A program made the translations under genes and the position numbers. A DNA stretch of 64,000 bases from Psammoneis japonica (lineage: Eukaryota): positions 248,001-312,000 of the forward strand of contig QPGO01000024.1 of the NCBI GenBank assembly GCA_008632985.1, written 5' to 3'. The notes under the pieces were generated by a model. That model was given only the letters and a program-made list of their open reading frames with translations. It did not search any database and was not told the DNA's origin. Below, piece after piece: positions 11,091 to 58,800 of the stretch (its first letter is position 1; each line of letters begins with the position of its first letter).

Positions 11091-12152
11091 ATGCCAAAAA
11101 CAAAGTTGTCAGTGAATTCTTCCTCCCGATCAGCTACAGCTGTCGAGTTTTCTGGTTTTTTGTCTCGCCAAGAGCATGAGGCATCAGCGACGCGAAAATC
11201 GCAGAGACAAAGGCAGAGAAAAGGAGCAAGAAGGAAGAATTCTTCAAGCACTCGAACTGAGCCAACTACATTAAACGCAACAGGCGCAGAGGCGTTAGCT
11301 ACACGAAGATCTCAGGGACGAAAGCAGAGAAAAAGAACAAGAAGGAATTCTTCAAGCACTGGAACTGAGCCAGCTACATCAATCGGAACAGGCACTGCAT
11401 CTCCAACAGCGAGCTCCCTCCATTGGCATACACCACGACCACACGTCCCTCTTCAATGCGAAGAAAAGATGGTGGAGGTCGTCATTCGCTGGAAAGAAAC
11501 AGAACGCGGCATGATGAGGAGTCAGCCAACTTTTCGCCTAAAGGAAATCAAAAAGAAGTGCAGATCCACAGGCATGTATCTTTCTCAGGCGCTCTCGCTA
11601 CGACGACACCACCTGCAATTGAACAATCCAACGAGGCGCCTCCAGCAGCTCGGTTTGGGTGACTACGCAATGATTAAGGAGTCTGCGACTATTTTTGAAA
11701 GCGCAGTTGCAGAATACTTGGACGAGTGCGCTATTTCGTACCACGATGAGGCCGACCAAAAGAAGATATTTTACAAGAACCAAAAGGAAAACGACCTCAT
11801 GCCTCCGACACCCGATTTCTTACTAAAGGATGCTGTCGATTTGTTTGAAAATACTTCTGGGCGTGGGAGACACAGAATCAGGTGGATCGAAGCCAAGATG
11901 TTTTACGGGGCCTCGACCATTCCTCATGATAACAAGAGTGCTGTCGGGAGCATAATGAGAACGGCTCGCAAGTACGTGGAAGCCTATGGACCTGGAGCCA
12001 TGGTTTTTTCGTTTGGATGTGGTGACGTTCTGGCACGCCAGTTGCTCGACATTGGCGTCTGTGCTTTAGATGCAGAGCCTTTGGATCTTCGAGACATGGA
12101 GCGACATCAGAGAACTTGGTGTGCCAACAAGAATGGAGAAATTTTACCATAG
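11091..12152 (+). CDS. CDIN1/C15orf41-like (TPD family, PD-(D/E)XK nuclease) protein
   Basis: 353-aa ORF of normal composition. PTPDFLL...WIEAKMFYG...YVEAYGPGAMVFSFG matches the TPD family pattern. Confidence 0.75.
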   Translation: MPKTKLSVNSSSRSATAVEFSGFLSRQEHEASATRKSQRQRQRKGARRKNSSSTRTEPTTLNATGAEALATRRSQGRKQRKRTRRNSSSTGTEPATSIGTGTASPTASSLHWHTPRPHVPLQCEEKMVEVVIRWKETERGMMRSQPTFRLKEIKKKCRSTGMYLSQALSLRRHHLQLNNPTRRLQQLGLGDYAMIKESATIFESAVAEYLDECAISYHDEADQKKIFYKNQKENDLMPPTPDFLLKDAVDLFENTSGRGRHRIRWIEAKMFYGASTIPHDNKSAVGSIMRTARKYVEAYGPGAMVFSFGCGDVLARQLLDIGVCALDAEPLDLRDMERHQRTWCANKNGEILP

Positions 12153-12239
12153 ACGGGAAACTGGACAGAATACTGTGTCAACATGTGCGCATCATCACAC
12201 TTGGAACAAGAATAGCAGTTTCTACTCTAATTGCATCAA

Positions 12240-13697
12240 AACCTAGAATGCACCTACTGCATCCAAATCCCTCGACTCAAATTGCAACTACATCATACAC
12301 CGGGAGCCCCAGCAGGAGGCTGTCCCGTTTGCTTTCCCGCTCTCTTAACTTCACCCACCAAAAAGAGCTTGTTAGCAAGGACGGTTGCAAGATGGCAGCA
12401 CTGTCTTTTGACACGGATGTTATCCCAGACTCCTCGTCAGCAGGAAGCATTAGGTCGCCAGTCTTACAGTCTAAACCCACTGGCAATCCTGAGGATTCAT
12501 CATCATCTTGCAACCTCAAGATGCTCTCTTGTACATCAAATCCAGAATTCTCCGCAAGAGTCTTTGGAACAAGCAAGAGTGCTTCCGCAAAGGCTTCTAC
12601 ACCAAGCTTTGCTTGTCCCTTTGTTGTCTTGATGATTTTTTTTGTCTGAGATGCGTGGATGTAGCCAGTTGAAGGCCCTGGCTCTCCTGGAGTGACAAAC
12701 CCATCCTCAGTGCCGCCATTCTTGACCACACAAAGTCCATCACCAAATGGCGCCCTTGATCCAGTTGATGGTGTGTGTTTGTTGGGTCCCTGCAGAAGGA
12801 GAGTGCAGCTCTTGGGATGATGACATTTCTCCACAAAGGCAATTTTGCCATCCCCTGGGGGGAGCAACTCCGCAGACCTTTCTTCCGGCCCATGAAAACT
12901 GCTCCTCATCCATGTGTGTTCAACCAAATGAGAATGAGAGAACCTCCACATGCCAAAGTGAGGTGCTCCGTGTTGCACTGCTTGGCATGGTGCAAGCATG
13001 AAATGCCTTCTTTTTTTTGGCAAAAATGTCAAGCGGCAAAATGGGTCAACTCCCTTTTGACCATCATGACAAATCTCTCACTCTGCTGCAAGCAGGAGCT
13101 GTTGTGACAATGATGTGTTGTGGGCTGGCACATCAAGGGCATGATGAGCAATGGAGCAACAGTGGCCATTCTAACCAGCTTTTCTTCTTGGTTTGCAGCA
13201 ACAAGAGACCACCCACAAGCATGATTTGTGGACGCAGCCCTTGGCGGCAAAAAGTGGCCTGCACGCTGCGGCAATTCTCTGTGCACAACAAACACTTGAG
13301 GTCATGCCAACATTGACTCCAGCTGTGCTGTCTTGAGAGGTTGGTGTGCTTGGGCCAAGCCAGCATGCACCTGCACATCAGCATGTGGTGCGCTGGCACG
13401 CACAGGTCAGGGGGTGCTGCTGCACCGGCAGATTGAGAGGCAGCACCCCCCTTGTTGTGCAAGAGAACAACCGCGCACTGCCATCTTTGGAGAGCTCAGT
13501 TCGTCCTGTGCCACTGACCAGCATCCTGAGAGTGCCCAGAGGTCTGAGGTTGCTCTTGACAATGCTCCACAGCCCCGCCCCCGGCTGAGATGCCCCATAA
13601 CAGGCATTGACTCAGAACTCAGAAGACTGCCCTCGTCTGCCCCGGGCATGACACAAATTTTGGCATTGGGGTTGAGTTCTTGAAGATGAGATGTCAT
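12240..13697 (-). pseudogene. CCT6: T-complex protein 1 zeta (CCT6) pseudogene
   Basis: Fragments in shifting frames: MTSHLQELNPNAK, VKSNLRPLGTLRMLVSGTGRTELSKDG, FVEKCHHPKSCTLLLQGPNKHT, KGQAKLGVEAFAEALLLVPKTLAENSGFDVQE. Multiple frameshifts. Confidence 0.85.
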
Positions 13698-13958
13698 GTT
13701 GCTGTTGCTGCTTCTGTCATTGAGAGTGCTGGATGAGAGAAAGTAAGAAACAACAACTCGAAGATGCGGGGCAGTTGGAGTGGGGGTCGAAGCAGGCAGG
13801 GTTGAAGATCGTGTCACCGCGCGATGCATCGCGCGAAATATGCGCGCCAAAACAAACGCAAGCCAGCCGAGCCCAAAATTTCTCGCACCGCAAATCAGAA
13901 GATCAGCCTCACGCCACACTGTTCAGCATTCAGCAGTTACAGTACGGCATCTATCACC

Positions 13959-16900
13959 ATGTCGGGTGAATATTTTGACGATGACGAGCTCATCGAGGAT
14001 GCTATGGAGGAGGAAATGGAGCCTCCTCTGGACTATGAAGATTTTGTGGAGCAGGAGATGCAACTGCAGCGACCTCAGCAAAGCGACAGAACCACAAATA
14101 CCGAACCGCCTCTAGCTCCAGCTTACGAGCACACAACAACCGAGGCAGTCACTGAGGACGTACAACCTCCCCCTTCAGCCGCTGCAGACCAGGAGGAAGA
14201 GCCATCCTTGCAGCATAAGTTGGTCGAAAAGACAGATTTGTACAAATTCGACCGGCAAGTAATCACAGACATCGTGTTTTGCGTATGCTGAAGCCTGTAT
14301 GTATCGCATCCTCTTATACGCTTTTCCTTTCTCTCTCCGAAAATGATTTATACTGTAGATACAGTGGCAGAAGTGAGTGGCGTAAGAAGCCAAAGCAATC
14401 AGATGACACCATGGTTGCCGAAACGTGGAAACGCGGGGAAGACAGCCTCCGAAACTCGACTGTGTTCAGTCGTCAGACAACTGCTCGTTTGCAAGCTGCA
14501 ACCCCAGAAGTGCAATTATTGGGATTCATAAACAAGGAATCATCCAAACCGCTATGCCTCAACAGGACGGAGTCGAGACGACTCAAAAGCCCAAAAGAGG
14601 GGATAACAGTATACCAATAACACTGGGAGATGGAACAGACTCTTTATTCCGTCACACCAAACTACAAGTCAGCTAGAGCGAGGCTCTGAAACAGGGAATA
14701 TGCTTGGCATTTCGATCAAGGAACTATTTCGTCGTTCCAATGCTATTTTGCGCAAAGCTGAACGGCAGAAACTACAGCAGCGTGCAACCAAACAGACCAC
14801 AACCACCAACGGTTCGCACAAGGAAACCGCTGACCATTCTCTTTGGGTGGACAAGCACGCACCGACAGTATTCTCTCACCTCTTATCAGCTGAACGGACC
14901 AACCGGGAGGTGCTTCGGGCGCTTCGTGGATGGGATCCCTACGTTTTTCACCGAGACCCTCCACCACGTCCTGCCATTGTACAACAAGCTCGTGACGAAT
15001 TTCTACAAAAGCAGCAGACGCCGCAAAATGACGCTCCAGCCGTCTCCAACCCAAAAGACACTCGTCCCGACATGTCAAACCGCGTCATTCTCTTGTCGGG
15101 GCCTCCTGGTGTTGGAAAAACAACTTTGGCTCATATAGTTGCTCGCCATGCTGGATACCGACCGATGGAAATCAACGCGTCTGACGAACGATCGGCCTCG
15201 GTTCTCAAGGAGCGGGTGCTACGTGGTATGGAGTCTGCCACTCTCAACATGGCCAAAAACCACGTCAACGCGCCGAATTGTTTGATTCTCGATGAAATCG
15301 ATGGAGCCGACGCTCGCGGGGCTGTTGCGACACTTGTGGAACTTATCAAGGAGGAAATGCCCAGTCGCAGTGGCAACAACAACTCCCGCAAGAAGAAACA
15401 AAATCCTTACCTTCGTCGTCCCATCATCTTTATTTGTAACCACAAGTTTGCACCGGCACTGAGACCGCTCTTGCCATACGCCATGCAGTTTGATGTCAGT
15501 CCACCGTCTCCCACTCGTCTCGTTGCGAGACTCCGGGCTGTGTTGAGCCAAGAGCGTTTGAATTCGACTGGCGCCTTGTTGCATCAATTGGTCACAGGGA
15601 CGGGAGGTGATATTCGTTCTTGTCTGTACACCTTGCAGTTCGCGGCAGCAAGGGCTCGGGAGTTGGCAAGACTGTCCGAGAAGGATCAAAGTCATGCAAC
15701 GGTGGAAATTTCAAAGGCTCTGGGCATGGCGCTTGGTGACACGGGCAATGGGCTCAAAGACGAACGCAACGACGTGGCCGGTGCCATCTCTGCCGTGTTT
15801 CGAAAACAGAAGAAACCACGTCTCATAGACAGTGCCTCAAGCTCCACCTCGAGCGTGGGGTTGGACCGAATCTTGCAGAGCGTCGAGGTGAGTCTTCCGC
15901 TCATTGAGTTCCTCGTTCCTCGTCGTACATTGAGCCTTAGTACCTAAGCGTTTTTTGCATTGCGTATAGAATTTCGGAGACAATTCAAAGACGCTAGATT
16001 GCCTCTTTACCAACCTTTTGCGCGTTTCCTTCGTGGATCCTACCCTCGACAAGTGTTTTGCGGCTCACGAGTGGTTGTCTAGTGCTGATATTTATCGCTC
16101 TCAAAAGACATCCGTGGCATCCAACAACCACATGGAGCATCACACCCTGCAGCGGAACTACATGCCAGCTGCTGCCGCCGCAGTTCATTTGTTTTGTCGG
16201 GTCGAGACAAAGTCGGACCTTGTTTTCTCCACCCGGCAACTAACGGATTCACGATATTTGCTGGAGGCCAATGAGGGACTAGTACACAAGTTTATCGAGG
16301 GATTGGCACCGAAAGCGAGGACGGGTGCGGTTGGAAATAATGTCGTGACAGAGACCATTCCTTACGCCTTGTGGATGCTGTCAGCTGGAGAGGGCAGCTC
16401 CTCCTTGGATCGAGCCGTGTCCACCTTGGAGGTATTGAGCAAACACGAAGTCATTGCCTTTCAGGCTCATGTATCGACGCTTCGAGCTTTGGGCCTCACC
16501 TACGTTGCAGAAGAACAGCAGAGTGTGGATTCGTTATCCCATGCAAAGATGAGGCTTGAACCTGAGATTGATCGGATTGTAAAGTTTGAAGAAATGTCGG
16601 AAGGAAATCTGAGAAAGCAAATCCCATCCACGGTGAGTGCCGATGTTTTGTTCCCATGTTGCATATTCTTTAGCTTATTGTCGGCAATTCTGTCTACTTA
16701 AATGACAGTTAAAAGAGCTCCTTGCTTATCGCGCTTCGCACGAGAAATTGAAAGAACGAGATTCAGCCTTAAATACTGACCCAAAGCATGATGCAACGGG
16801 AAGGGAAATTGCTGTGACGGGCGACAGCTCAAGAGGTGGAAAAGAACCCATGATAGTTCAAGAGGGACCGATCGCCCCAGAGAAAACCGCGAAGCACAAA

Positions 16901-17267
16901 ATATGCGCTAACAAGAACACGGATCCTCCACCGAAGCGACCCAAGGTACGAGGCAAACAGGCTGCGACTTACGTGTTCAAAGCTTACGCATTCTCTGTAT
17001 GTCTTAATCTTTCTAATTTTACCATTGCGGAAATTGTCCCTCCAGACGCAATCGGTGGGAGTCAACTTTTTGGGGATTGGTGCTGCGAAAGCAAAAGCTG
17101 CCAAGACTGCAAGAAAGGCGATGCAAGTTGGTTTCGATCGATCGAAAAAAGTCAAGTTGTCAAATAGCGGCAGTGGGGTTGAATACAAGAATGTAGTTCG
17201 TTTCAAGTTCTCTCGTGGTTTCACTCAGGCGGTTCGGACGCCCTGTCGACTAGAAGACCTCAAGTAA
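13959..17267 (+). CDS. CTF18: Chromosome transmission fidelity protein 18 (RFC-like AAA+ ATPase), multi-exon
   Basis: LWVDKHAP, Walker [35 protein letters not shown] and C-terminal [10 protein letters not shown]. Frame-consistent introns at 14255-14358 (GC-AG), 15888-15969, 16633-16708 and 16946-17045. Apparent frame disruption at ~14590-14640. Confidence 0.9.
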
Positions 17268-17282
17268 AATCGGGGTAAAAAA

Positions 17283-18284
17283 TCAGAACGTATCGTTTAG
17301 CACTTGATCCTCGTCAAGAACAACAGAGAATGAGTTTCTGTACTTCTTCCCTCTCCGAATGATCGTTTCTCTAGTCCATTTGTCGTCTAGGCAGCGCTCG
17401 GTAGCTCCTTCCGGTCGTCGTAGTACGAAAAATGCAACCTTTGGGGATTCTCTCGTCTCTTCAACTTCAAAGCCGATACCACCATTGGTCGACAACATGC
17501 TGAGGAAAAGCTCCGGAGTTGTATGTGGAGATTGGATCAAACAAAGTTTGGGAAGTGTGAGAAATAACAAGCCGCCGGGTCGAAGGTGATGAAACAGTCT
17601 CGCCAGCATGCAACCCCGGTCTTTTGCGGTTGTGACGCAGTTGATCACCATTGAACAAACCGCAACGTCGTATCGCTCTGAGACGTCCCTGTGCAGCAGA
17701 GGAAGCTGCAGAAAATCCATTTCCTCAATGCCTTGGTGACAAGAGTGCAAGTCTATGGCTCGGACGTTCAAATTGTATTTGAGTTGCGTCTTGTCCCACT
17801 CCATGATTGTAGAGCCATCTGAACCTTTGTCAACTCTTTTGACTTCGGCAGCAGCATCCAAAAGCTCGGTATTAATTGCCCCTACTTCCAAGAGTCTCAG
17901 GTGTCGTCGCGGTAGTTTTCTTCTCTTTGTCGAAGTTTGCGTGTGCACTTCACCATTATTTGTTTGCACAGTGATTCCATAGAGCCACCCGCACCTCTCT
18001 AGAAAGCCTAAAACCCATCTACTGGTTGAATGATATGAAGTGCTCAGTTGGCTGGCTCGTTGGTATTCCAACCGACCACCCATTGCTTCAATCTCATCGT
18101 CAAGTCGTTTTGCTTCTGGCAAGTCGCCTTTGCGTACTGCCAAGTCCTTCTCTCTCGTCAATTTATGAAACGTAGACGTGATTACCCTCGCTCTCTTTCT
18201 TGATCGCATTTGAGGCGGAGCCAATGGTATGGCCTGCTGCTTGCCGGCTCTCCCCTTCTTCTTGTTGCCTTTGTTTTTTCTCAT
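17283..18284 (-). CDS. BMT2: 25S rRNA adenine-N1 methyltransferase Bmt2-like
   Basis: STSRWVL, LRLLEVGA, AIDL, IEEMDFLQLP, YDVAVCSMVINCV and LRPGGLLFLTLP. ATG taken at 18284. Confidence 0.8.
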   Translation of the reverse strand: MRKNKGNKKKGRAGKQQAIPLAPPQMRSRKRARVITSTFHKLTREKDLAVRKGDLPEAKRLDDEIEAMGGRLEYQRASQLSTSYHSTSRWVLGFLERCGWLYGITVQTNNGEVHTQTSTKRRKLPRRHLRLLEVGAINTELLDAAAEVKRVDKGSDGSTIMEWDKTQLKYNLNVRAIDLHSCHQGIEEMDFLQLPLLHRDVSERYDVAVCSMVINCVTTAKDRGCMLARLFHHLRPGGLLFLTLPKLCLIQSPHTTPELFLSMLSTNGGIGFEVEETRESPKVAFFVLRRPEGATERCLDDKWTRETIIRRGKKYRNSFSVVLDEDQVLNDTF

Positions 18285-18666
18285 CGTCAATACAGTGTAT
18301 GTAACCCGCACCTCCACCCTCAACTGGCTCCCACGCCATGTACCGGGATTTTCACGATTTTGTGGCGGCAAAACTGGAACCGGGGCGGCGTCCAGACTGT
18401 TGAAATGAAATATTTTAAATGATGGATATATTATTATTTATCTTACCCAATTCAAATCGCATCGCATCAGTTTTTTTCTCTCAAACGAAAGAAGCGAAGA
18501 TCGAAGCAAGATAGACAGCGACGAGACGTACGAGGCTGTTATGTTTGGCGTTTCGCTTGCTATTCCTTTTACGAGTAGGTCTTACGTAGGTTTCATCGTA
18601 GCGCTTCCTTGATTTATAAACGGTTAGTTTCTTGTTTTGCGGTTTAGAGAAGTTGTTAGTTACCGG

Positions 18667-19632
18667 ATGAACGAATTCAGCGGAGGCCTTGACACCGACA
18701 ACAAATCAGAAGAGCTGTGCAGGCTCTTCTCGTCAACAGTTTCGTCCCTTTCAGCAGATACTGAGGCGCTCAAACAATTGTTGTGTCTGAAGCAAATGAT
18801 TGCAATAAATGATATGAGCACAATCAATAGAGAAAACATGGAGCCTAATCGCCCAAATGAACGCAGAGACGCGAAGGTCGCGAGCTCCAATGCCACCATT
18901 GTGGACCTTTTCCAGATTGACAATGTCGTTACCGACTTGGAGAACAAGCTGCACGATCTGAGAGAGATTGTTGCAGAGGAACAGCGTGCGTTGAAGAAAT
19001 TAGAATCCGTGAAAATTGCCGCGGAAGCACAGAAGGAGGTGTTGGAGTACATGGTTGAAGAATGCAGAGACGTGCCACTTCCGGGAGATTCGAAGCCGTC
19101 GAGGTCACGGAAGAGTAGCCTTTCGTCTCGCGTCAACATTTCTCAACGCGAATCTACAGTAGAGAGAGCACATCCGCAGAGACGCGATCAAATGAGAAAC
19201 TCCTTGAGTATTCGTCGAGTTTCAGTCTCAGAGTTCAACAACGTACCGAGAACCCTCCGTGGCCGAGTAACTCTTATGGACATCAACGGCGCCTTGGAAG
19301 ACATTGAAAATGTTTGCAAATCCAAGTATGATGCTCTCTATCATCACAAAAAGTCGGCTGAACAGCTTATTCACTGTGGACGAAGCCAACACATAATGGC
19401 GTCGGCGCAAGACCGGCAGCAGGTTCAGCGCCACTACGAGTTGTTGACAGAGGAACACGAGGATCTTCCATGGGTAGCAGAAGTAGATCTAAGGCATTCT
19501 TGTGCTTTCTTTCGAATAGGAGAAAGCACAGCCAGGGCTATCCTTTCTGTGCTGCGAAGTCTCAAACGGCTCAAGCAGGTTCCTGGCAAGAAGACGTCCG
19601 AAGTTACTTACATTGTACTTGGTAGCAAATGA
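18667..19632 (+). CDS. SKA1: Spindle and kinetochore-associated protein 1
   Basis: N-terminal coiled coil. C-terminal EFNNVPRTLRGRVTLMDIN...KSKY...AEVDLR...ARAILSVLRSLKRLKQV is typical of the SKA1 microtubule-binding domain. Confidence 0.8.
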   Translation: MNEFSGGLDTDNKSEELCRLFSSTVSSLSADTEALKQLLCLKQMIAINDMSTINRENMEPNRPNERRDAKVASSNATIVDLFQIDNVVTDLENKLHDLREIVAEEQRALKKLESVKIAAEAQKEVLEYMVEECRDVPLPGDSKPSRSRKSSLSSRVNISQRESTVERAHPQRRDQMRNSLSIRRVSVSEFNNVPRTLRGRVTLMDINGALEDIENVCKSKYDALYHHKKSAEQLIHCGRSQHIMASAQDRQQVQRHYELLTEEHEDLPWVAEVDLRHSCAFFRIGESTARAILSVLRSLKRLKQVPGKKTSEVTYIVLGSK

Positions 19633-20171
19633 TGTACAACATTGTTGTTTCGGGCTCCGACTCCAGTTGTTTTTATAACGATGATAGCACACCCGTACTG
19701 ATAATACGTTCTCGACGTCTCAAAGGCGGCTACACTATTTCCTTGCGCTTGTAATATCTTTCGAACCGCTTCGACCTGTTCCTTTCGTTCAAGATGGTTA
19801 GGATTTACGGTACATGTTTCAGGGTCGGTCTTTCCAACGCTACTCAGTAGTCCAGCCTCTGCATTGATACATGGATAAGTTGGGGCGATCTTTAGTCTTC
19901 GTAAGATGGAGTAATTTGAAATCACCGAACCGTGGAGAGAGGAAACGAGGATAGAATCGCACGATACGACTAGAAGAGATCCTCAGAGCAAGTGGACAGC
20001 ACGGCAGGTTTCAATTACGTCTGCGCAAAATCTTTTGGACTAATTTACACTCTCACTATTAGTAAGCCACAATAAGGGCGACAAAGCTTTTCTAGGTAGA
20101 GCATTCTGTTGGTAGACGCTCTGGGAGAGAGGGGAAATCAACTATCATAGAGAGGTGCTTCAGGAATTGTC

Positions 20172-21573
20172 TTACAGTCCAGCGCCCAGGAGCGCAAAGC
20201 TTATTCCGAGTCCAAGTAGAATCGAAGAACTAAAACAAACATTGCCGAGGCTGGTCTGTTTCGGTATGCTGCCATCGACCACCTGACCTTCCAATGAAGA
20301 CAACAGGTCGGGTGCAAGCTGATAGCAAGCTGTAGCGAAGTATCCGGAGGTGAACGCAAACGCAGCAACACCTAACGTGATAGCGAAATCGCTTCGTGGC
20401 AGGGTGTCTTCTCCCCAAGCTGAAGCATAAAGGAAGAAGTAAGGACAGCAGCATGATCGCACAATGGCCAAAAAGCCAACACAGGAAATTGATGACGGTT
20501 TTAATAGCAGGGTAGCCGGTCGTCCAAGTAGATCAGAGAAGAGTCGTGTGTAAAACAGAATTTGCGGGAGAGAGTGGTTGGATGGGTTCGTGCTGGTGAA
20601 TCGATTGAACCACGAAGCCACCGACATTGAAGATGCCACGGTCACCATAAGGGCGGCACAAGCTGGCCATGTCTTAAGCCATATTTCTTTGCTGGTCAGT
20701 TCACCATTGATGTTCAAGCTCTGTTCCTCATTCTCAAGTAGTGGCGATTCATCCGCGTCAAGTTCTCCATCGGACGTGTTCTGTTCAGTTCCTTGAGTCA
20801 AGAGTGGTTCAGACATACGTTCCGTTGAGGAGTAGTAGGCCATCATGACAGATGCTCCGATTGATGAATCCCGCTGCCTCATTGAAAGCCACACGCCGTG
20901 ACTATGCCGCATGAGGATAGCGAACCCAACCCAACAGAGAACGACAATTCCCGCAATCGACAAATAGAACGGCACGAGGCCGGAAGACGCGCTGCTTCCC
21001 CCAAAAACCCGTCAACATCGAAGCCACAAGAACCAGTCCAGCAGATGCTTGCATCCCACCTGAAACAGCAGCTGGGAGCGTCTTGCATTCAGGATATACA
21101 AAGCAAGCCATTTGCTTCATCGTGCCATGAAGCACACTTGCCGCAAGACCTAAAGCAAAAGTGACAAGCGACAGTAATGCCAAATTGTAGCTCACGAGAG
21201 GTATGAGCAGCACAGACAGAAGCGAGAACGCGAATCCAAACTCTCCGCGAAAAGAATAAGTGCGGAGACTATTGAATTGGCGGTCAAAGTAAGAATCCCA
21301 CCGGGCTTGAGCCATTGTGACCGGCAGCATGGGGAAAAATACAGCCAGATTCAAGTATAAAAATGAATTCATTCCTAACGTTTCTGAGTAGAAAACCAAG
21401 CTAGAAAGTACGGCAGTCCATCCAACCGTGGAGCCAACGCCACACAGGAAAAAGAGGAAGATTTCAGTTTTCTGGGCTTGGCCCCGTGATCGTTGAGATT
21501 GGGTATCGTCCGGAGAAGCCATTCTCTCGCTGCTGGTATTTTGCGAGAGTAGGAGCGGCGACATCGTCTGCAA
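20172..21573 (-). CDS. Equilibrative nucleoside transporter-like membrane protein (apparent frameshift at ~21000)
   Basis: Two overlapping hydrophobic ORFs with FFLCGVGSTVGWTAVLS, AVSGGMQASAGLV, SDLLGRP and FAFTSGYFAT. The frame changes in a T/G homopolymer run. Confidence 0.7.
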
Positions 21574-22264
21574 TTCCCTCTCAGCCGGTACCCTGCCTTC
21601 TAATTTCTACTCCTGCTGCTGATCCATCTCAAATAGCAATAATGAGTGGTGAGTTCTCCTAGTGTGTCCGTTCTGTGTGTGAGGATGGAACGAAGTGAGA
21701 TGCACAGCACGGTGCGGCTGTCGGCTGCAACTCCCTCGCAATTTGCCAACAACTCAGATTGCCACGTGTCGTTACAGTAGTTGACACGGCGTGCAGACGT
21801 CAATCGCGCACGCTTGGCTGGCTGGATAGCTAGTAGCTAGACTAGGATGGAGGGCGGCCTGTTGTTGTGTTACTGCAAGTGATTAGGTAGGAACAGATCA
21901 TGAGGGTGAGCACAAGGGTCAAAGCGAAACAATATTATCAATAGCAATGCAACACAAAGGCTGTGGCTGGTGGCTCTCGATCTCAAAGATTGAACTTCCA
22001 GAGTGTTTTGCAACGTCAAGTTGTTTAAAAAAAATCGTCGTCATTGCCATTGTCCGAATTCGGCGAATGTTCTTCAATGTGCGTCAAACATCAGAACCAC
22101 AGGATATAATCGTCTCCATGAAGCATGAAAGCTTATCAGGAATAATGAAAAGTTAAAAGTATATCGTCTTCATCACTTGTTGACGCACATTGAGATGCCA
22201 GTAACATTCGGAAAAACCACCCATGTTTCGATAGCGTAGCTTTTGTGACGTACCATTATCCGGT

Positions 22265-23132
22265 CTATGTATCAAACGCACTTGCAACTGCGGCGTGCCC
22301 CGTCCTTGCAGCCAGGTGTGTTGAAGCATGTTCCCGAATTGCAGCTTGAAGAACGTCGAAGACAGTACGACAGGCCTCCAAGCCCGAGTCCAGCACTTGC
22401 TGCATCACATTGAGGTTCGGCAGACGAGCTTCGCACTGAGACAGGACGACGGTCCCCCTCTGCGGCATGCACGCGACTGGCATGTATACGGCAGCCGTCA
22501 TATCCTGACCAAGCTCCTCTATTCGATTCAGGTCAACAATCGGTGCCTCATTCTGCCATCCGGCGGAACAACTGCACACCAAGTCTCGCATCGGAACGCC
22601 AGCATGAACCAGAGCGCAAGTTGTAGCATTGACAGCTGCGCATAATCGGCCACCGTCGTCGGCTAATACCCAAACAATAATTTCAATCTTTGATTTGGGA
22701 AAGAGCCTCACTAATACAGATGATTCCATCGCCTTCTTCAGCAAGTTAGAATGTTCCACCAGACGCCGATCTGTGTTTGGGTTTGCTACGCGTCGATCGG
22801 TGGAAGGAGCAAAGGGCGCTGACTTGACCGTCACATCTATGATAGCGCTAAAAGCATGATATCCGCAAGTCAGTCAACTTTGACAGAAAATAGCCGCAAC
22901 GCAACGCAACGTACCGATCCGACAGTTCATCTGATCGCCTCGTGCACTCCGTAGGCCCACGTACTGTAGCCAACACAACGGTTAATCCCATTTCTACCAA
23001 CGCACTCCCCGCCACATCCTTGTCAGGTAGTGGACCCATCTGAATCCTCATACGTCTAATTTCGTGTGGCTTTCGACCATCGTTGCGCAAGTTCGACAGT
23101 GCCAGAAGATCGGCTCGTCTCAGAGATGTCAT
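22265..23132 (-). CDS. RRP41: Exosome complex component RRP41 (RNase PH family), one intron at ~22849-22914
   Basis: LRNDGRKPHEIR, GSALVEMGLTVVLATVRGP, FPKSKIEIIVWVLADDGG, AGVPMRDLVCSCSAG. Confidence 0.9.
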
Positions 23133-24192
23133 TGTACAACAAGAACTTCTATTGAAATAGAGCAAGAGGAACTGTCTTCAATTCCTATTCTTATCCTCTC
23201 AGAAGTACGCTTTTCTGTTACGACTTTCACGAAGCGTGGTGCGTCGGTATCAGGTATCAGGGACGGAAGATCTCGACCACACATCACCATTGCGGCCGCA
23301 ATCAATTTTCAGCGTCTTTGAAAGCATATTCAAAGCTGATAACCTGTTACAGTACACTGTACGTAGAGCTTGTACCAGACAGAAACCGGATCTAAGCATA
23401 GCTAAAGTACGTTCAATTCTACGGGGAGTTGCAGGAAAAAACGTCTACGCATGGTTCCACGCGTTTTTTCCCTAAAAAGGCGCCACCAGCCCGCGCCGCA
23501 GATAGCTGGCTACTAGTCCCACTACTAGCAGTAGCTAGAGTGGAGAGAGCAGGGCCCTACAGAAACGAACCCACTGTATGTACCGGGCGGCCGTACTGTA
23601 CTGCACCTACCAGAGAAAGAGAGCAGACGATTACGACGACTGCCAGCATGCCGCACGTACGTCGTACGTGCAACAGCGAAAAGCCAAAGGCGTGAGCACT
23701 GCTGCACTCGTACTGCCGAGTTCATCACCGAGTCAAACTACAGTCTACTCTGCTAGCTAGAGCAGGCCCTGCTGCTGCTACAGTAGCAGCTGTGCTAAGA
23801 CTGTTATTGAAAGAATATTTTGTTGTGCCAATCAGTCACTAATGATCCTAAATCCCAATCTGTGCATTGTGTCAAATGCGCGCGCATCCTGTCCGCTGGC
23901 GTCCAGCTGCCCTGTGTTTGTGCCAGGCGCTGAAAAAGAAGATGTGTTACGACTCTGTCGTTGTGAAAATTATGAGCTAGTTTAGAGTAGAGAAAATGGG
24001 ATCGTGCGAACAGGGAATCTTGCCAAATCCCTGTTCGTTCGCACTTGGATCGCATCAAATCGATCGTGCGCTCGCATTGTGGATCGTGCGAATCAAGCCA
24101 TCATGCGCCATGCACGAGTGATGTCATCGTGTGGAATCACGCTACCATCGTGGGCCAGACGACGGGCTAGTGTGCTTCACACGGATGCTCTC

Positions 24193-25463
24193 TCAGCATC
24201 CTTCTGGAATTGCCTGAGACCTGGAGCCACGCCCTCCTGTGGTCGTGCTTCCCAGGCACGTGTCAACAACACTGCGTTGCCACGTGCAAGAGGCTTGTGC
24301 ACGGTCTCGCCGTGTTGTCCAGCAGCGAGGCATGCTGCACAGCTCCCAATTGCAGCCAATGAGTCCAACACCGTCGCCTGTGGCATCAATCAACTTGACT
24401 TTTGGATTCTCCACAGCGCAGCATGTCGAATCTTCCGACTTGAGGTCCACATGAATGATCCTGGACCCATCGCGACCACCCAACAAATGAACCTTGTTGA
24501 TTTTCCTAGAGACCTGGATTGGCAAGGGCACGAGGGATGTGGAAGACAGGACCTCAGAGTCACACTGCCTCATTGAAGACAGCTCATCTGAAAGAGCTTC
24601 AAGGCGCTTGCAGACGTCACGGAGTTCATCATCGCCACCGTGGTTTCCCCCTTGGGCAGTGGCTTCATCAAGGAGAACTGCGTGGAGAGCGTCCATGTCC
24701 ATGGAGTGCTGTGGCCACTGGGAAACGCAACTGAGCATCCACCCATTGCTCACAACAGACAGCTGGATGCCAGAAAGGTCCGTGGTGCAAACACCAGATG
24801 GAGCCACAATGACCAACATGACATGATTGGTCTTGGTGACAGAGTCCTTGCAAGTGGCTTGCAAAACCATGGGCTTGAAGCTTTTCCAAGAACCTCCTTG
24901 CCCACCACCACGTGCCTCCATCACAGAAGCAACACCAGCTCCATTCATGACAGCAGCTGCATCGTTGTTGTTTGCAGGAGCTGGAGCCGACACCGTCCGA
25001 CGAGTGCTGTCAAGGCCACCCGAGAACAGCTCTTCGTCGCCGTCGTCGGTGTCTGTGGCCAGATGAAAAAAAAGAACACCGCGCGACGCGGTCAAATGAA
25101 AATGCACGCGCAAGCAACACAGTGACGTCACTCACATTCATTTCGAATGCATGTGCGAACACGGTGAAAATCAAAACTCACCGTCAGGGTTCTCATTGCT
25201 GTCGTTCATCGTTGACGAAGATTGAACCCGGTTTCGTCTTTGAGCCTGTGCAAGCCAGTGCGGAACTTGTCCAGTGGATGGTGCATGAACTCTGCACGCA
25301 TCTGCTGGATCTCTTTTGGCGTCGCTCCAGCGCTTGCCCTCCCATCCATCAGCATCTCCTTCAAGAGTTTGCAGTCGGCAGACCCCTTGCGCCACACTGC
25401 TCGAAGGGGGCCGGCGGCCTCAGTGTCAAGAACCGATTTGGTTCGTTGGTTGAGTTTGGGCAT
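24193..25463 (-). pseudogene. Degenerate accessory ORF, probably of the adjacent PIF/Harbinger element
   Basis: ORFs 25206-25508 (WRKGSADCKLLKEML..PKEIQQMRAEF..PLDKFR) and 24193-25131 are Tyr-free and divergent from the transposase. Harbingers typically carry a second ORF. Confidence 0.45.
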
Positions 25464-26402
25464 GGCTTCTTTGGTTTTCTCTTTTTTATGAGAGGATTGA
25501 TGGTGCACAGTCGAGAGTCGTCAAGATCAGCGTTCGCATTGACGGGCAGCAATGAGAACCCCATTTTTGAATGGGTCACGACCAACTTACCTCACCACTG
25601 TCCGCGGGACACTCTTTTCAAATTTGAACAAATTCCAACCGCCAAAGTGAGATTTGAGAAAACACCAACCGCCAACATTGAGAAAGGGCCTCTTGACAAT
25701 GAAGATTCCCTCAAGACCACACGAAAAATGTTCCGAGACCACACAAAAATCGTTCCCAAATCACACCCAAAACGATTTTCAGCTCCAGAACGATGACTTT
25801 GGACCCACTCAACTGAAGAATGAGTGGCTGAATCCTGAGCTTCGGCGTGTGTTTGCGACAGCACTGATGGCAAACCAGCTCCTGATGTTTATTTTGGCTT
25901 TTCATTGGCATGTTTCCGTGCGCTTTTCGTCCATGAAAAGGCGATTTCATTTTGATTTGTAGAACAAGAATGCTTTTTTAATGCCCCACCAACAACGGAC
26001 CATGGTTGTAAAATTCTGTGTCGCATGTTGCATGTAAACTGCTGTGTCAGTTGAGCCAAGAGCACGCTTTGGAATGGTTGTTCTGCCGTGTTCCGGTTGA
26101 CAAAATGACGCCCAAAGTTGCCCATTGTGAACGTCCCGAAGTCACCATTCGGAAACCACACCCGAATCGCATTTTTTTCGCATTTTCTTCAAACACAACG
26201 GAACCTCACCAAAGGCCTCTTCCAATGAGAACCCCAACTGCATGAAGACGACAAAACATGGTTGTCAAATGTAAAACAACTGCCACTCTAGAGCAGCCAG
26301 CTGGAGACTGGAGACTGGCCACTGGCAGCAGAGACTGGCACAAACGGCGCAACAGAGAAAAGACTGAAGCAACACACTGTGGCACATTGCTGGTTGCTCA
26401 TC

Positions 26403-27320
26403 ATGAGACTGCCCAAAGAGGCCGCAGAGCACTTGGCACAGACGATCATTCAGAAGCCAAAAGGGTCAACTGCAGTGTGGAAACGTCGGTTCGCACCACA
26501 CTTCTGCACCCCAGAAGAAGTGGCACCTGAGTTGTGGGGGCTTCTCCTTGACGACGGGAAAATGCCACGAGGTTTTTTGCCCATTCACATGCTCTGTGCC
26601 CTTTGCTTTCTCAAATTGCACGAATCTGAGACAGTCGTTGCTGGCATCTGTAATAAAATCCATGAAGACACGCTGAGAAAATGGGTTTGGGTCGGAGCTC
26701 AACTCATTGGACAGTTGAATTTGGTGCGCACCATTCCAGATGGGACTTGCATGCATGAAACAAATGGGCTGACACCTTGTTCTTAGATTCGCTGGGAAGA
26801 CCGCTTCATTGATGATGATGGCAGCAGATGTTTGGTGACACTCGACGGCACTGACTTCAGAGTCTACGAGCCATCAAAATTCGATCCAACATGGCTCTCC
26901 CATGAATTCCACGGTGCTGGTCTGCGGCATGAAATTGGAGTGTGCATTCAGACAGGGTGGATTGTTTGGGTCAATGGGCTGCACCCAGCTGGGTTGCCGG
27001 ATCTGAACATTGCTCGTGAATGGATCGTTGAAGAGCTTGAAGATGGCGAGATGCACCCAGCCGACGGTGGCTGCAGCGACGGGAGCCAGCACAGCTCGAC
27101 TCCATCCGGCCTAAGAAATGCAGACGAGGCTGTGAAAACAACAGCAAGGGCAAGGCATGAGGCTGTCAATGGATGGTTCGAGCGTTTCGGAACACTTGAC
27201 AAAAGATGCCGCCACGCGAAGGAAACACATTGCCACGTGTTTCATGCCGTGGCCAACATCACACAGTTGGCCCTCATGATGGGTTGCTCACCATTTGATG
27301 TGGATTGTTTTGACAACTAA
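26403..27320 (+). mobile_element. PIF/Harbinger DDE transposase, mutated (likely intron ~26723-26787)
   Basis: VTLDGTDFRVYEP, SHEFHGAGLRHEIGVCIQTGWIVWVNG, ADGGCSDG and RARHEAVNGWFERFGTL. Positions expected to be Tyr read as His/Cys. Confidence 0.85.
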
Positions 27321-28414
27321 AATTAACAGTGGAAAGCATGTTGTCGCCAAGATGATGTTGCCGTGAACGTTCCTTAATCTCATTGTCGATGCAACGCCTC
27401 GCGAGTTCGATCGCGAGCAAAAGCGAACCCCTCCTCCCCACCACAGGCAGCCTGCAGCAGCGCCCTACAGCACTGTCATAGGGCCCACAGCATGCGCCGG
27501 ACTGCATCTCCGTGACGCACGGGCGGGTGGCGGCAGCGCGCCCGGGGATGAAAATGCACCCACCGATGACGCAATTGTGACGTGTGCTTCACGCGCTTTT
27601 TCGTGGTAAGCCTTGCGGGGTGCAGACAGACGCCGGCAGTGCATCAGCGCATGCATTTTTTATTTCTGATGATTCCGCGCGCAGATGATGGGGATATCAT
27701 GCCGTACGACAGAGATGCCGATGCCGAGCTTCAAAACCACACTCTTGTCTCACACCCATTGAAGCTTGTGGTTGGTTGACTCCATTTCTCTTCAACCAAA
27801 AGCACTCACTTTTTCCTCTCGCATGGCAAATTTCAAGATTCTCAGCAACAAAAATCAAAAGCACAAAACAGCCCTCTGTTCGTTTCCACGACAGACACAC
27901 CCAGCATGACAACTGGCAGACAAGATGATGATGTTGTTTGCGGGGCAATGCGGCAGACAAACAATGCTACAAAAAAAGCTGCCGCGTGTCACATCATCCG
28001 TGCCATCAAGCAGCAGTGCAACAATTGTTTTTTCCTGCAACTCCCGGTACTGATAGAGATAAAAGGTACGCAGTACCAACCACAAATCAGATTTTCAAAA
28101 ATTTGAAAAAGAGATGATTCGAGCTAAAGATCGTCTCACACTCCAACATCGTCCGAGTTTTCCCTTCGTTTTCTTTGCTGAAGAAGACAATAAGATGCTA
28201 CACATGGTGATGGAAGAGTGCTGCCATACCCGCGTTAGACCTGGAGGCAGGCTTGCAATGTTGAGCTATCACGGCATGGAAACGTGTAGAAACGAATACG
28301 AGTTACCGAAGACGAACTAAAAAACAATCCAAGATAGCCAGGAGTGCGACGCTGCTGCAGAAAGGGTAGAAACGATAAAACATTAGCGTTGGCTATAGAT
28401 ATCATCAAAGCACG

Positions 28415-41186: not shown

Positions 41187-44100
41187 TGCAGGCAACTGTG
41201 GGAGACGCGGCAAACGCGGCAACACAGCAACACGCACACAACGGCGATACATACAAGTACATTATCCCGGGAATACAACCCATGTTGTATTCCGTAGTAT
41301 TTCTCCGTTGAATTCTACACATTGTACTGACCGTTACCCCACTTCAGCGACCGTATCTTCCGTGTTCTTGTGGAGGAAGCACGGGAATTTTTCCCGCATC
41401 GAAACAACCGGGTTGTTGCATGGTACGTCGCGTTTTTGATAGATTTATGCAACAACACAACCGAGACCATGCCGTCTAAAAAGTATTACAAGCCAACCTT
41501 GATAGCACTCACGTTATTTCTTGGCGGGGTGACTTGTCAATGTGAACAAGACTTCACCAACCAGAGGCCATTCAAACAACCCCCAACGATGTCGTGGTGG
41601 ATGGGTCTAAAGGCGCATGGAACGCCCGAACCAGGCGACAACAGCTTGCCCATGCAAGCAAGGTCAAATTGGTTGGAACACTGGAGGAAGCCGATTTCCA
41701 GCTGCATGTCAAACCGGTTGGTGCCGTGGAATGTTCTGTCAAATCAAGGCAACCCGACACGATCAACTGACGTAAAAAACCCCGTGCCATGTTTGACACT
41801 CACATTCAATGTTCTTGTTACATGCAGTGCGTGTCTAGGGCTTCATTCTTCCTTGTTCAATCCACAACATCGCTGGAGCGCCCCTTCCAATTGAAGCATC
41901 ATTTCTGTGCGCACGGCATCCAATAAATCCATCTGCACAGAATGGAATTTTGCACAACAAAGCCAAGCCTCTTGGATTCCTTGTACAATTTCCATTGACA
42001 ATGAAACAAGAATCGCAAAAATCGGCCCAAGGGATGTTGAGATGTTACCGCCGCCAACTCTTTGCCATAAATTCCAGTGGCAGCTCAATTTTGATTGTTC
42101 AACGACAAGCTCCGAAGAGAAAGTCAGCACCACAAAAACCCAAGCCCCGTGGACACCTTGTGGCACATGAGTCAAAATGATGACAAGAAGTGAGAAACAA
42201 CACCAAAGGTGCAATGGCACATCACAAAAATCCGTCATGTTGATGCTGCATTCTCACAATTTCTGCACTGCACCTTCAGCGACAAATCCGCCTCGACGGA
42301 TTGAACTCAACGCCAGCACCACTAGCCCATCACATTGCTTGCATGAAAGCTCCGAATGCTGCGAAAAGAAACGGGAAAATGCGGCAAAAATAGACACAGA
42401 TGTCAGCGACGCAAGGGAGGCCATTGTCGCGATCGTTTTCTTTTTTGGTTGTCTTCGCAGCTGCGCGTCTTGGAGGGTGCTGCAGGTTGATGTAGCGGAA
42501 GTCGGTGTCTGTGCTTTCCTGGTGACCCTGTAGAAGAAGTGCTAGACCCTGCGCAGTTGTGCCCAGGGTTGCATTCTTTCCGTCTGCCTCCACAATGCAC
42601 ACCTTGTGTCCAGCTTTGGCCAAAGTTGGCCACATGTCCGGGTTTTCCTTGGTGCACATTCAGCGCACATTCTACGCAGTTGGCCAACATCGACTCGAGC
42701 TCCGATGACTGGTTTCAGATTTTGCGGCCGGCTCGCGCGAATTTTTCGTTTTTCGACGTTTATCATGCAGCATTTCTGTTTGAAAATGTCCACAATTATG
42801 TTGTATTTTATTCATCATACACATGTTAGCACTCGCCACTGCACGTTTGTGCCAAAGCACACGCAGGGCAGATCGCTTCACCAAGCTCGATTCGAACGAA
42901 ATCCCGTGGACTCAAGGACAGTTTTGCTTGCACAGACCCTTTCAGTCGGCAAAACCACAGCATGCTGCAGCACTTGGGTACAAAATTACGCAAGTGCTTC
43001 ACCGTGTTAAAAAATGGCAACCACGGCGAAAGCACGAAGGAAAGAGACAATCTGTTGTCTGCCCTGTTTAACACTGGGACGTATCTTGACTGTACAAACT
43101 GATTGAACAGACACACTTGACAACACGCAATGATCTTCTGCCGAAGGAATCTACTTTGTCAGTCATTTAGAGTCTCACAAAGTGTCGCCAGTTAATTGCT
43201 GGCGTTTTGCGCGGCAATTTGGCGAGCGACTCACCGCACTTTACCGTGGTGAAACAAGGATTGTCCAAAATTTTCGATTTGACATCTCTGCTAGCGAAAG
43301 TTTCGAGTTGCACAACCTTTTCATGTGTCGAGCAACAGTTGCACAACGTCAAACCGCTTGCATTGCTCATGTGGACGTTCTCCACCCCTCAAACTTTTCA
43401 CCATGCTTTCATCACGTAATTTTGATTTGCAACGTAGAATTCTGCGTAGTTTGTGTGTGGCATGCTGTGGTTTGGCCTTTTTCTGAAAACTGAAAGGGTT
43501 TGCTGCATTGCTTCGTTTTGTTTTTGTCTGTCGTGCGTGTCGGAGCGATGGTGAAAATCCAACCGCCAAACCATTTGAACGCATTTGTGAAAGTTGTTGA
43601 ACAATGTGCTTTTGTTGCTTTTCTCTCATTCTTCCGAAGAGCAAAGCAACAACAGCCAACCAGATGGTTTTAATTGCTCTCACGTCTCCCACTCTCTGGT
43701 TTGTCCACCCAGCTTGGGGGGGCTGGGATTGGGGATTGGGGCTTGCAGAGCCGCTTGGCAAAACCACCCCACTCTGCCAACCAAGACCTGCTCCAGTCTG
43801 TTGCTGGGAAATGCAGGAGAACAACCAAGAAGGGCAACAACAGTTGCCCTGATTTAAGGTGCACGCAAATTGTCATGGACCAAGTTCTGTGTGCCATGCA
43901 TTGCACTGCAGTCACGGACAAAGATGTGGTTGGAGATTGGAGCAACACAGCTGCGTTGTGTGGCCGTTGATCTGCTGCATGTCAACTGCAGCCCAGAGAC
44001 TGCACAAAATGGACAATGATGGAAATGTCCAGAGCTGCACTGGTGTGACCAGAGGGTTGATCATTGCTGGCGCATGGGCGCTTTGCTGGTTGGCCATTGT

Positions 44101-55837: not shown

Positions 55838-58800
55838 TGCAGTATGCGACTGTTATATACATATTTATGATTATATATTATTTATATGTCAATCGTACCA
55901 CAGTCGTGGATGCGTACAAAGGACAGAACGATCACACAGAGTTGATCGGATGTCGAGAATTGCAAATACGATCGATTGACGATGTTGACATCTTACGTGT
56001 CAATAGCAATCGTATCCGGACAATCTGTTGTCACGAATATATTCTCCGAAAGGCCTTTTGTCTGTAGAAGCAGTGCAGAAGCTTTAGGCCATTGAGAACT
56101 CGTTCGGAGAAACCAAAAATCACAGAGCAAAATTTAATCTCATAATTTCCACTTTTCGCACACTATTCTACTTTCGTTTACACTCGTTCTTCGAGCATAG
56201 TGCATTGTGTATACACACCACAGAAGGTAAAAAGCACGGAAAATGAAAATTTTAACTAATGTGCCTTTGCAAATTCTTCTATAAACAGGAACGAATCGCA
56301 TCAGTTCTGCTGGAATCGATTTCCGAGCGGAAGAAGCTCAAGCCGAGCAGTGCCTCAAGATGGAACGCTGTTTTTCGTCTACCAGACAAGAGGATTCGCT
56401 CTAATACGGTCTATTCCAAGCACCCAAGGATCAAGGGCTCTCAAGTACACCGCATTATCAAAAAATCTACACCAAGTCATGGTTGCAGAGAATGCAAGTT
56501 CCGAGTCGATCAGGTCCGAGAAATGCGTCTAGCATGCAAGGAGAGACTGTTGGAGAGTTTTTGGAGACCGAATCAACGAGCCTCGAGTCCAAGAGCAAGA
56601 TGGAACCGTTGGAAAGTACCTCAAGAGTCTCATGTCTCATGTCTTTCCAAGAATTGCACTTCAGAATCAGAGTTGTCATTTTCAAGACGATCTGAAGAAA
56701 CCAGAGCTGCTTGACAGCAAGAAAGCCTCTGTTAGACCCAAGAGGTCAATGATGAGAGTCCATGCGACCCTCAGATGGATTCTAAGTCGAATCTAGCGGG
56801 AAACCGAGCGCTGATTTATCAGCTGTCACTCGCACCGCAAGGATGGCAGCATCAGTCTACTGTCCAAAACAATCAACTGTTGCAACTCATCCTTGATGAG
56901 CTGATTAAGTTTTGAGTCATCTAAAGGTCGTTCATGACGTCCGTGACGAAAAAACATGTCAACTCAGGCTCTGACAGCGCAGTTGGTTCCAAAATAAAAA
57001 AGGTTCCAAATTTGGTTCCAAAAATGGTCTCCCACATGGTGCCAGAACAATCCAAAGTGAATGCAAGGTCTCATCTTTAAAAAAAGAACACCCACATCAC
57101 GGATTGAAGCTGTTCTAAAAATGAACTAGCAAAAGAGTGCAAGGGTGACTCTGAAAGAGACCCAAAAATGCGCCGTTCAAATGGCAATCGCACGCGGTCG
57201 CGTCGCGACAACGAAAATGCCGCTCGCAAAAAAGAGTTGAACGTCATGGTTGATCAGGCGGTTCAAAAAATGCTCAAAGCGAGTTCCTCGAACAAAGAAA
57301 AAGAGCACAAGGGCAAAGAAACAGATTCTGATGCCCTCAGTGAAGAAAAGTGCCAATTTGATCGGATGATCCAGACTGAATCCGAAGAACAATTTTGGTC
57401 CATTCACGAATTGTGTGCTTCACTGGATGTTAGGAAGCCTAGAAAAAAGGCAGAAATAATTCATGCCAGTCCAGGAGTCATCATTTGTGTGAATGCTTCC
57501 TTGGGAAAGGAGAGAAAAAAAAGCATCTACGTGTTCCCATCGATGACGGAACATCGTCAACCACAATTTTGCGCAAATTCGTGCGAAAGTTGAGAACACA
57601 AGAATCCGCCACCAAAAACTTGGGAAACCAAGGGTGAGCTCTTTACGACTGACAGCAAACACCGAATTCAGTTCTCACTGTGCGAAATTTAAGGCATGCT
57701 GACATTCAAACAGCACATGTTGAAAACACCAAATTTTCTTCAGGTTCAAATGATGTGATCATGGGACGCGACTTAATGTCCAGTCCTGCAAGTCACATTG
57801 GACTGCGCAAATGAAGAAATCTAATGGGAAGAAGCAATTGCCTTATGAAGAATGTTCGTGCACTCTTCGATGCCGATGTTTTCAAGCTGAAAACCGATCA
57901 CATTGAAAAATGTGACGCCGTGAATGGAGTCAATGACGGAACCAATGGTCCTCGACTCACATTGTCACGCCATCGATCTTAATCAAGTGACAACTGCGGC
58001 AATGCATCTAACCCAAATGAACACAACCAACTCAATCTTCTTCTTGAGAGGTTGAAATCGTTTTGAAAAGTTCCTCAGACGAATGTGTGGGAAGCATCAG
58101 TGGATCTCATCGTGGAAAATCTGACGCGATTCCACGACGCGTGAGAACCTTCTCCTGTCACAGTCTTTGGAGGCGTCCAATCAAAAGGAGTTTGACCTGT
58201 TGTGAAAGATTGAAGTCTTGAGAATGAAATTGCTCTGAACAAGTCGCTCTGAGACTCATTGTCTGAAGAAAACAGGTCGAGTTCGACCGCATCCGACACT
58301 CAGAAGCTCAGCACAAGGTTCGTGCAGGTGGTGCATCCTTTGCCCAACATTCAGGAAATGCCATTGAAGCAAGAACGTTTCATGTGTGCAATCTATTTGA
58401 TTCAAACATGGAATGCCACCATGTCAAATAAAAAAAGCACACGTCGTGCTCACACGAAAATCATGCCGTGGGGAGAAAATGAGCACTGTGGACTTCCAAT
58501 GAGAATCTGTGGAGCCCCAGACATTTTTGTGCAACACTTGAGTGAACTCATGGCAGGTTTGAAGTTGTCAGAACGACTGTGTGTGATCGTTTGTGCCTGA
58601 CAAAAGTAACTTCAAAATGTCACCTGTGCAAGCAACAGCTTAGTGCGGCATTCAAACGACTGGAACAGTCGCTTAGAAGGTCAACAACAAAAGTCCTTCA
58701 CTGTTTAACTTGAAACAAACTGTCAAGACTTCCACACGTGACGACATGCAATCGATTGCAAAGAAAATGGAGGCGATTCAAGCAATCGCAACACGAGAAA

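Follow-up and report, generated by a model that had tools for sequence, protein, structure and literature searches.

In the diatom Psammoneis japonica, a dead copy of the chaperonin subunit gene CCT6 (CCT-zeta) has lost every aligned TA dinucleotide, and nearly every aligned CG, in a block that covers its 5' part. The block ends at some distance from the live genes on both sides, and beyond its lower edge the equally old 3' end of the same dead gene keeps most of these sites. With a probability of about 0.6, we read this pattern as the work of a TpA-specific A-to-G mutator, together with methyl-CpG decay. Both would act on silent chromatin, which would be fenced off 200-600 bp from live genes.

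The window is the whole stretch of 64,000 nt analysed here and belongs to contig C25. C117, C15 and C108 are other contigs of the same genome. The features of the locus are as follows.

11091-12152, plus strand: intact CDIN1-like gene (Pfam TPD, PF14811), in convergent orientation to the dead CCT6 copy
12200-12480: spared zone, the 3' end of the dead coding sequence plus the former 3' UTR, evolving neutrally and with two frameshifts (TA kept 9/14, CG 7/10, both small counts)
12288-13697, minus strand: dead CCT6 copy, former ATG at 13697 and former stop at 12288-12290
12481-12670: edge zone (TA kept 2/4, CG 1/11; one insertion)
12671-13740: fully hit zone (aligned TA kept 0/18, aligned CG 2/56; 32 insertions vs 8 deletions)
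13085-13182, minus strand: remnant of the CCT6 intron (TA kept 0/7)
13745-13958: divergent promoter stretch common to CCT6 and CTF18, with TA O/E 0.48 and CG O/E 1.15, like live genes
13959-15947, plus strand: 5' part of an intact CTF18-like gene (AAA, RFC1 lid and Rad17 domains)

The minus-strand frame at 12280-13077 has its best match in TIGR02347, CCT-zeta (101.8 bits; runner-up 64.6). Its aligned coding sequence carries 28 frame-breaking indels in 13697-12671, one in 12670-12481 and two in 12480-12290. In addition, about 500 bp of sequence present in the intact gene, the end of exon 1 and the start of the intron, is deleted at ~13185. Searching the genome at the DNA level with the dead copy found two partners, an intact gene on C117 and a dead 3' half on C15. 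The C117 gene has 544 codons and one GT-AG intron. It is the sole locus of the genome that scores at CCT-zeta level (418 + 375 bits, against at most 301 for the other subunits). The intact paralog that the earlier note had expected from the dead copy is therefore present.

The pattern in the dead copy is no assembly artefact, because separately assembled run contigs reproduce the sequence. One comparison gave 0 substitutions and one gap over 786 bases; a second gave five substitutions and three gaps over 1102 bases. These contigs come from public runs of one study, possibly of the source sample. Four small indels of the window are absent from them, and among the 31 indels that break the coding frame, about four may be errors or alleles. 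The neighbouring genes are intact. The CDIN1-like frame has its predicted start at the first in-frame ATG (11091) and its stop at 12152. The name CTF18 is that of the earlier note, and the Pfam matches are consistent with it. The CTF18-like frame is broken at 14604 and 14633; these breaks are probably assembly errors, because the run contigs carry one extra A at each position.

The zone 12671-13740 holds two TA where 39.8 are expected (O/E 0.03, Poisson P 4e-15) and 20 CG where 62.9 are expected (O/E 0.27, P 3e-10), with expectations taken from the rate in the genes of 14000-23400. On the other hand, CA (O/E 1.68) and TG (O/E 1.88) are raised. The zone had been described as poor in TA and CG and heavily frameshifted, and it is both. 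Its composition matches that of large depleted blocks elsewhere in the window. At 12290-12480 the TA O/E is 0.65 and the CG O/E 0.55. The upper end of the zone lies at ~13734-13744. It is thus 215-225 bp before the CTF18 ATG at 13959, in agreement with the earlier figure of ~220 bp. Blocks at 24000-28000, 41500-43500 and 56500-59500 of the window have lost TA but largely keep CG.

We compared the dead copy with the intact C117 gene as the reference. Over 13697-12671, 17 of the 18 TA and 46 of the 56 CG have become TG or CA, so that the differences from the intact gene are enriched at TA and CG, as proposed before. Both strands are affected: TA changed to TG nine times and to CA eight times, CG to TG 18 times and to CA 28 times (P 0.18). 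Across 62 orthologous loci, the intact state is the commoner one at 40 of the 41 TA/CG sites that change an amino acid. The spectrum and the direction of the changes are read directly from these alignments.

Retention differs strongly between the outer zones 13697-12671 and 12480-12200 (P 7e-5 for TA and 5e-6 for CG). The earlier note saw a gradient along the gene. Aligning the two copies and classifying the substitutions along them gave another picture: the TA/CG transitions are localised in a block, and transversions are flat. The switch from hit to spared sequence is a step ~200 bp wide (12670-12460), and this block edge lies 300-520 bp from the CDIN1-like stop. Within 12481-12670, CG loss extends ~100-150 bp beyond TA loss, on small counts (CG 1/11, TA 2/4 kept), and some of the CG changes there are transversions on the intact branch.

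Transversions do not differ between the hit part (43/853) and the spared part (10/274; P 0.41), so both ends of the dead gene are equally old. Private changes of the spared end are nine non-synonymous and two synonymous. Together with its two frameshifts, they argue that selection did not preserve it. Recent gene conversion is rejected as well, since the end evolves neutrally and has the same transversion age. It means that the earlier note was right about the TA kept at the 3' end, but not about a near-intact protein sequence.

The same spectrum appears when contexts are pooled over seven hit and four spared segments, counting sites with both neighbours unchanged and leaving the edge segment in neither pool. 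Transitions reach 56/64 at TpA and 111/178 at CpG in hit segments (other contexts 2-10%), compared with 7/53 and 11/114 in spared ones, a contrast that is partly circular because the pools were chosen after the composition had been seen. This circularity does not touch the rows for transversions, insertions and other contexts. Pooled transversions are 150/2965 in hit segments (5.06%) and 65/1276 in spared ones (5.09%). The losses of TA and CG are separable, as one relic keeps 0/15 TA and 20/56 CG. In hit zones the divergence is inflated about twofold, which would bear on the dating of pseudogenes and transposons if our reading holds.

The intact CCT6 contains 120 CG, with 100 expected. Its ratio for TA outside tyrosine codons is 0.53, and 23 other reading frames range from 0.31 to 1.0. 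We looked in this gene for an excess of synonymous TA/CG loss and found none. In exon 2, outside TA/CG sites, the window copy has 48 non-synonymous and 14 synonymous private changes, and the C15 copy has 50 and 14. The neutral reference is a site ratio of 3.3 non-synonymous to synonymous. Changes common to both dead copies, mostly changes of the intact branch, are 5 and 16. These dN/dS comparisons show that the C117 gene was kept under purifying selection and that the window and C15 copies became non-functional soon after the split.

The homology between the window and C117 covers the last 230 bp of the CDIN1-like gene, CCT6 and the first 550 bp of CTF18 (window 11888-14374). Both neighbours are whole in the window, and only their cut ends are found on C117 and C15. 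This makes the window the most likely donor site: the parent copy here would have died, and the moved C117 copy would have taken over. Synteny in related species, which had been suggested as a check, gave no support. Ten neighbour queries returned 0 matches across 80 metagenome CCT6 loci, only 32 of which are at least 4 kb long, so the evidence for the donor site is entirely internal. The copies are not uncollapsed haplotypes: the three have unrelated flanks, and contig depth is alike (53-61), a depth that is not equal to copy number. Likewise, a whole-genome or large block duplication is rejected, given that the other genes in 13750-23900 and most of CDIN1 have no second copy.

Two further observations concern these loci. 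Near-equal scoring CCT and deaminase loci are paired across C188/C220, C361/C246 and C41/C317, and these pairs are possibly uncollapsed haplotypes or recent duplicates. On C117, a 2.2-kb element with 106-bp terminal inverted repeats (84015-86189; 65 genomic matches) sits 100 bp upstream of the CCT6 ATG. The sole intact copy of this essential gene is thus left with very little native upstream DNA.

Which sequences are hit, and which are spared? Our comparisons point to chromatin state and position more than to homology or transposon identity, because of the spared intact copy, the reciprocity of the two loci, the 3' end present in three copies, the asymmetry on C108, one transposon stretch and the block edges. 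On C117, the dead head of CTF18 (86205-86812) keeps 0/21 TA and 4/32 CG. Immediately past the stop of the live CCT6 lies the dead CDIN1 tail, a duplicate of the last 230 bp, which is not depleted in TA; it keeps 6/6 TA, a small count, and 11/14 CG. The roles are therefore reciprocal: the window hits the CCT6 copy and spares the end facing CDIN1, and C117 hits the CTF18 relic. The middle of the CTF18-like gene has two dead duplicates on C108 with a common deletion, one spared (TA kept 10/14) and the other hit (0/15). Other relics of duplicated genes had been proposed as a test, and both the C117 head and this second C108 copy carry the signature.

C108 also contains a 4-kb inverted duplication of dead sequence (58997-62976 and 19257-23398), with one sister erased of TA and one spared. 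The erased sister keeps 5/120 of the other's TA and 79/197 of its CG, and changes in the opposite way are 1/495. The ~11 kb around the spared sister hold one long frame only. Here the rule of proximity to a live gene fails, and dead DNA can apparently escape in some other way. The element beside the promoter of the intact CCT6 keeps six TA, again a small count, in a stretch that lies 250-400 bp from the ATG; two other copies of this stretch keep 0 and 1. With three host-gene relics hit and this transposon stretch by a live promoter spared, the earlier view that the process is blind to transposon identity agrees with the data.

For eight block edges, we took the distance to the closest start or stop of an adjoining long frame. 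It is ~210, 460, 225 and 225 bp for the edges at 10881, 12608, 13734 and 54049 of the window. On C117 it is ~420 and 230 bp (84336 and 87563), and on C15 ~625 and 860 bp (662118 and 665005). So, the distance is ~210-630 bp at seven of the eight edges and 860 bp at the eighth. The asymmetry between copies and these edges are direct observations.

Homology could instead start the process. Repeat sensing, by RIP/MIP-like pairing or by small RNAs from duplicates, would mark all copies; active chromatin and selection would protect the expressed one, and the mutators would work on the rest. All the relics studied are duplicates, each with a partner in the genome at 72-87% identity, and the genome has 27 C5-methylase family matches. 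Diatom DNMT4 enzymes are described as RID-related and of unknown function in the consulted part of PMC9998398. Nevertheless, the CCT6 3' end is present in three copies and is the least mutated part in the window. The homology covers 11888-14374 and the hit zone only ~12500-13745. One of the two dead C108 sisters is spared over 4 kb, and the intact copy has no excess of synonymous loss. Moreover, a comparable region in Bigelowiella natans is single-copy, according to the parts consulted of a preprint (10.64898/2026.01.13.699255). We consider a homology trigger unlikely. Of the two causes that the earlier note offered, duplication or silencing, duplication as such fits less well, and silencing is the better supported half, as far as sequence patterns can suggest it.

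RIP mutates both copies of a duplication, acts before meiosis and depends on RID/DNMT4. The process described here resembles it in that context-specific transitions destroy redundant copies, host genes included. In contrast to RIP, only one copy is hit and the intact CCT6 is undepleted, one of two dead C108 sisters is spared, and the mutated zone ignores the homology limits. The change at TA is also opposite. In Neurospora, RIP is a C-to-T change in duplicated DNA that raises TpA at the expense of CpA and TpG (PMC7296669, in the part consulted), whereas here TpA is removed and CpA and TpG are made, with CpA>TpA at only 4/265. The analogy with RIP in the earlier note is thus not upheld.

Another possibility is that nothing is targeted. 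TpA and CpG lesions would arise everywhere, faithful repair, coupled to transcription or chromatin, would work only in or near transcribed genes, and the rest would drift to TG and CA. The edges follow live genes at 5' and 3' ends alike, and transposons and host relics are handled alike, as this would predict. However, the spared C108 sister is dead and equally old, and its 4 kb, remote from long frames, retain their TA. The losses of TA and CG can separate (the relic with 0/15 and 20/56 kept), and in B. natans the change arose in some lines only, as the consulted parts of the preprint report (10.64898/2026.01.13.699255). Such a lack of targeting seems quite improbable to us.

Beyond substitutions, the hit part carries an excess of insertions: 32 insertions and 8 deletions, against 2 and 5 in the spared part (P 0.008 for insertions). 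The first 387 coding bases of the dead CCT6 have expanded to 510 (window 13697-13190). The excess is robust to heavier gap costs (the strictest setting still yields 23 insertions), and a simulation with substitutions only gave 0.13 false insertions per 774 bases. Many of the insertions are short duplications of neighbouring bases. The dead CTF18 head on C117 has 21 insertions and 7 deletions. On the other hand, the C108 pair, in which one copy has fully lost TA, lacks an excess (27 vs 25), and that of C15 is weak. We therefore reject the idea that insertions generally accompany TA loss; by this comparison, they seem to go with long or deep silencing and not with the TA step itself.

Polymerase eta prefers WA sites, and its patches act in the A:T phase of somatic hypermutation. 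With error-prone repair of this type at methyl-CpG mismatches, CpG decay might generate both the TA changes and the insertions as side products. It would account for the coincidence of TA loss, CG loss and insertions in the hit zone, and the most-hit segments show slightly more T>C at sites other than TpA (39/438 vs 8/227, P 0.01). Yet the AA context (TpT 21/250) is not above GA (19/242) or CA (16/280) in the hit segments, which disfavours a source of the polymerase-eta type. TA can vanish with 40% of CG remaining, and a search for enrichment of the insertions at former TA/CG sites found none (31/64 vs 27.6 expected). This origin is very improbable. Finally, two further readings are considered refuted: a genome-wide neutral bias that shows wherever selection is relaxed, in which selection or recent gene conversion would have preserved the 3' end, and an assembly artefact, in spite of the few window indels absent from the run contigs. 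Against them stand the neutral and equally old spared end (9:2, two frameshifts), the dead CDIN1 tail and the dead C108 sister that retain TA, and the 0 and 5 substitutions of the run contigs.

Under the favoured combination of a TpA mutator and methyl-CpG decay on silent chromatin, the history of the locus would be as follows. A segment of ~2.5-3 kb (CDIN1 tail, CCT6, CTF18 head) would have been copied from the window to C117, and C15 would have received a shorter piece; the limits of homology are observed, and the donor direction is the probable one given above. The redundant window copy would then have entered the silent, CG-methylated chromatin of the genome. There, methylated CpG would decay to TpG and CpA on both strands, a pattern seen in the alignments for which methylation is the putative cause. 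A TpA-specific mutator would convert TpA to TpG and CpA on both strands; this pattern is likewise observed, with an enzyme as its presumed agent. The simplest agent would be an enzyme of the TadA/ADAT2 type that deaminates the TpA adenine in DNA to give hypoxanthine. Stretches silent for long would gain short insertions, as observed at two relics. The silent domain would be barred from ~200-600 bp around an active gene. This barrier, suggested by the observed edges, would spare the end facing the CDIN1-like stop and the CTF18 promoter. Duplication would matter only by making the host gene dispensable. The silence, the methylation, the enzyme and the trigger are what we infer from the sequence patterns.

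Candidate agents are present, and the inventory of deaminases and methylases singles out none of them. The genome has five MafB19-type deaminase loci, two A_deamin loci and an ADAT2/TadA-like gene; the last two kinds are what tRNA editing by itself would call for. A deaminase with a chromatin-reading domain was sought in the scanned frames and not found. One of the C5-methylase family matches has a chromodomain-like stretch just under the cut-off. We dropped a deaminase-2OG-Fe(II) dioxygenase fusion (C79, minus strand), which is widespread in named diatoms. Its motif, which we take to resemble that of guanine deaminase, suggests that it probably serves base metabolism. On C301 and C297, several similar copies of a C5 DNA methylase lie in DNA without TA but with CG, and they are possibly carried by a repeated element.

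Decay of methylated CpG yields TpG and CpA. It accounts for the CG half of our pattern (CpG 111/178, other contexts 2-10%), but it leaves the TpA loss unexplained, and the TpA loss can run ahead of the CpG loss. In diatoms, CG methylation of transposons depends on DNMT5, according to the consulted part of PMC9998398. Literature searches, with most subscription papers outside their reach, did not turn up any description of TpA loss in a diatom.

The closest known process is the TpA hypermutation of integrated viral DNA in B. natans (Mettrop et al., bioRxiv 10.64898/2026.01.13.699255), and ours is a variant of it on a native essential gene. In the consulted parts of that preprint, the same change arises de novo in a viral region that is silent and single-copy, at a rate raised ~1000-fold and switched on in some lines only. 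Foreign origin is treated as the trigger, although host-type domains are also listed, and an ADAT2-like deaminase is proposed as the agent. The words 'CpG', 'diatom' and 'pseudogene' gave no hit in a term search of its main text. As far as these parts of the preprint go, the two cases share the change from TpA to TpG/CpA on both strands in a strict context (here TpA 56/64 vs 6-8% in other T contexts) and the confinement to regions. Homology is not needed in B. natans, where the larger region is single-copy and silent, and an ADAT2-type deaminase is proposed in both. In contrast, our host is a diatom, from a different supergroup, and what is hit is not foreign DNA but a housekeeping gene of the host, at the probable donor site. 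The loss is saturated here (0/18 TA kept), compared with a Rho of 0.45 for the B. natans region. CpG loss, the insertion excess and edges set by neighbouring genes are additional here.

The sole published case that we found frames TpA hypermutation as a defence against foreign DNA; here, a copy of a native essential gene was destroyed. The locus offers built-in controls that separate sensing of repeats from sensing of silence, and the reciprocal control and the insertion excess are new. A wider interpretation is tentative and, in our estimate, less probable than its negation. Diatoms might possess a heterochromatin-coupled 'reverse RIP', in which DNA adenine editing follows the silencing of any sequence, self or foreign, and makes the choice between duplicates irreversible. 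By erasing the parent copy at one locus and, in mirror image, the CTF18 relic next to the daughter at the other, it would have made the relocation of an essential gene permanent. Active genes would fence off a few hundred bases, and a by-product of repair would add the short insertions. Such editing could be shared with Rhizaria, as an old SAR-wide pathway. If our reading holds, silencing in this lineage becomes permanent loss, with consequences for what happens to duplicates. It would also bear on the search for a natural DNA adenine deaminase that acts on double strands.
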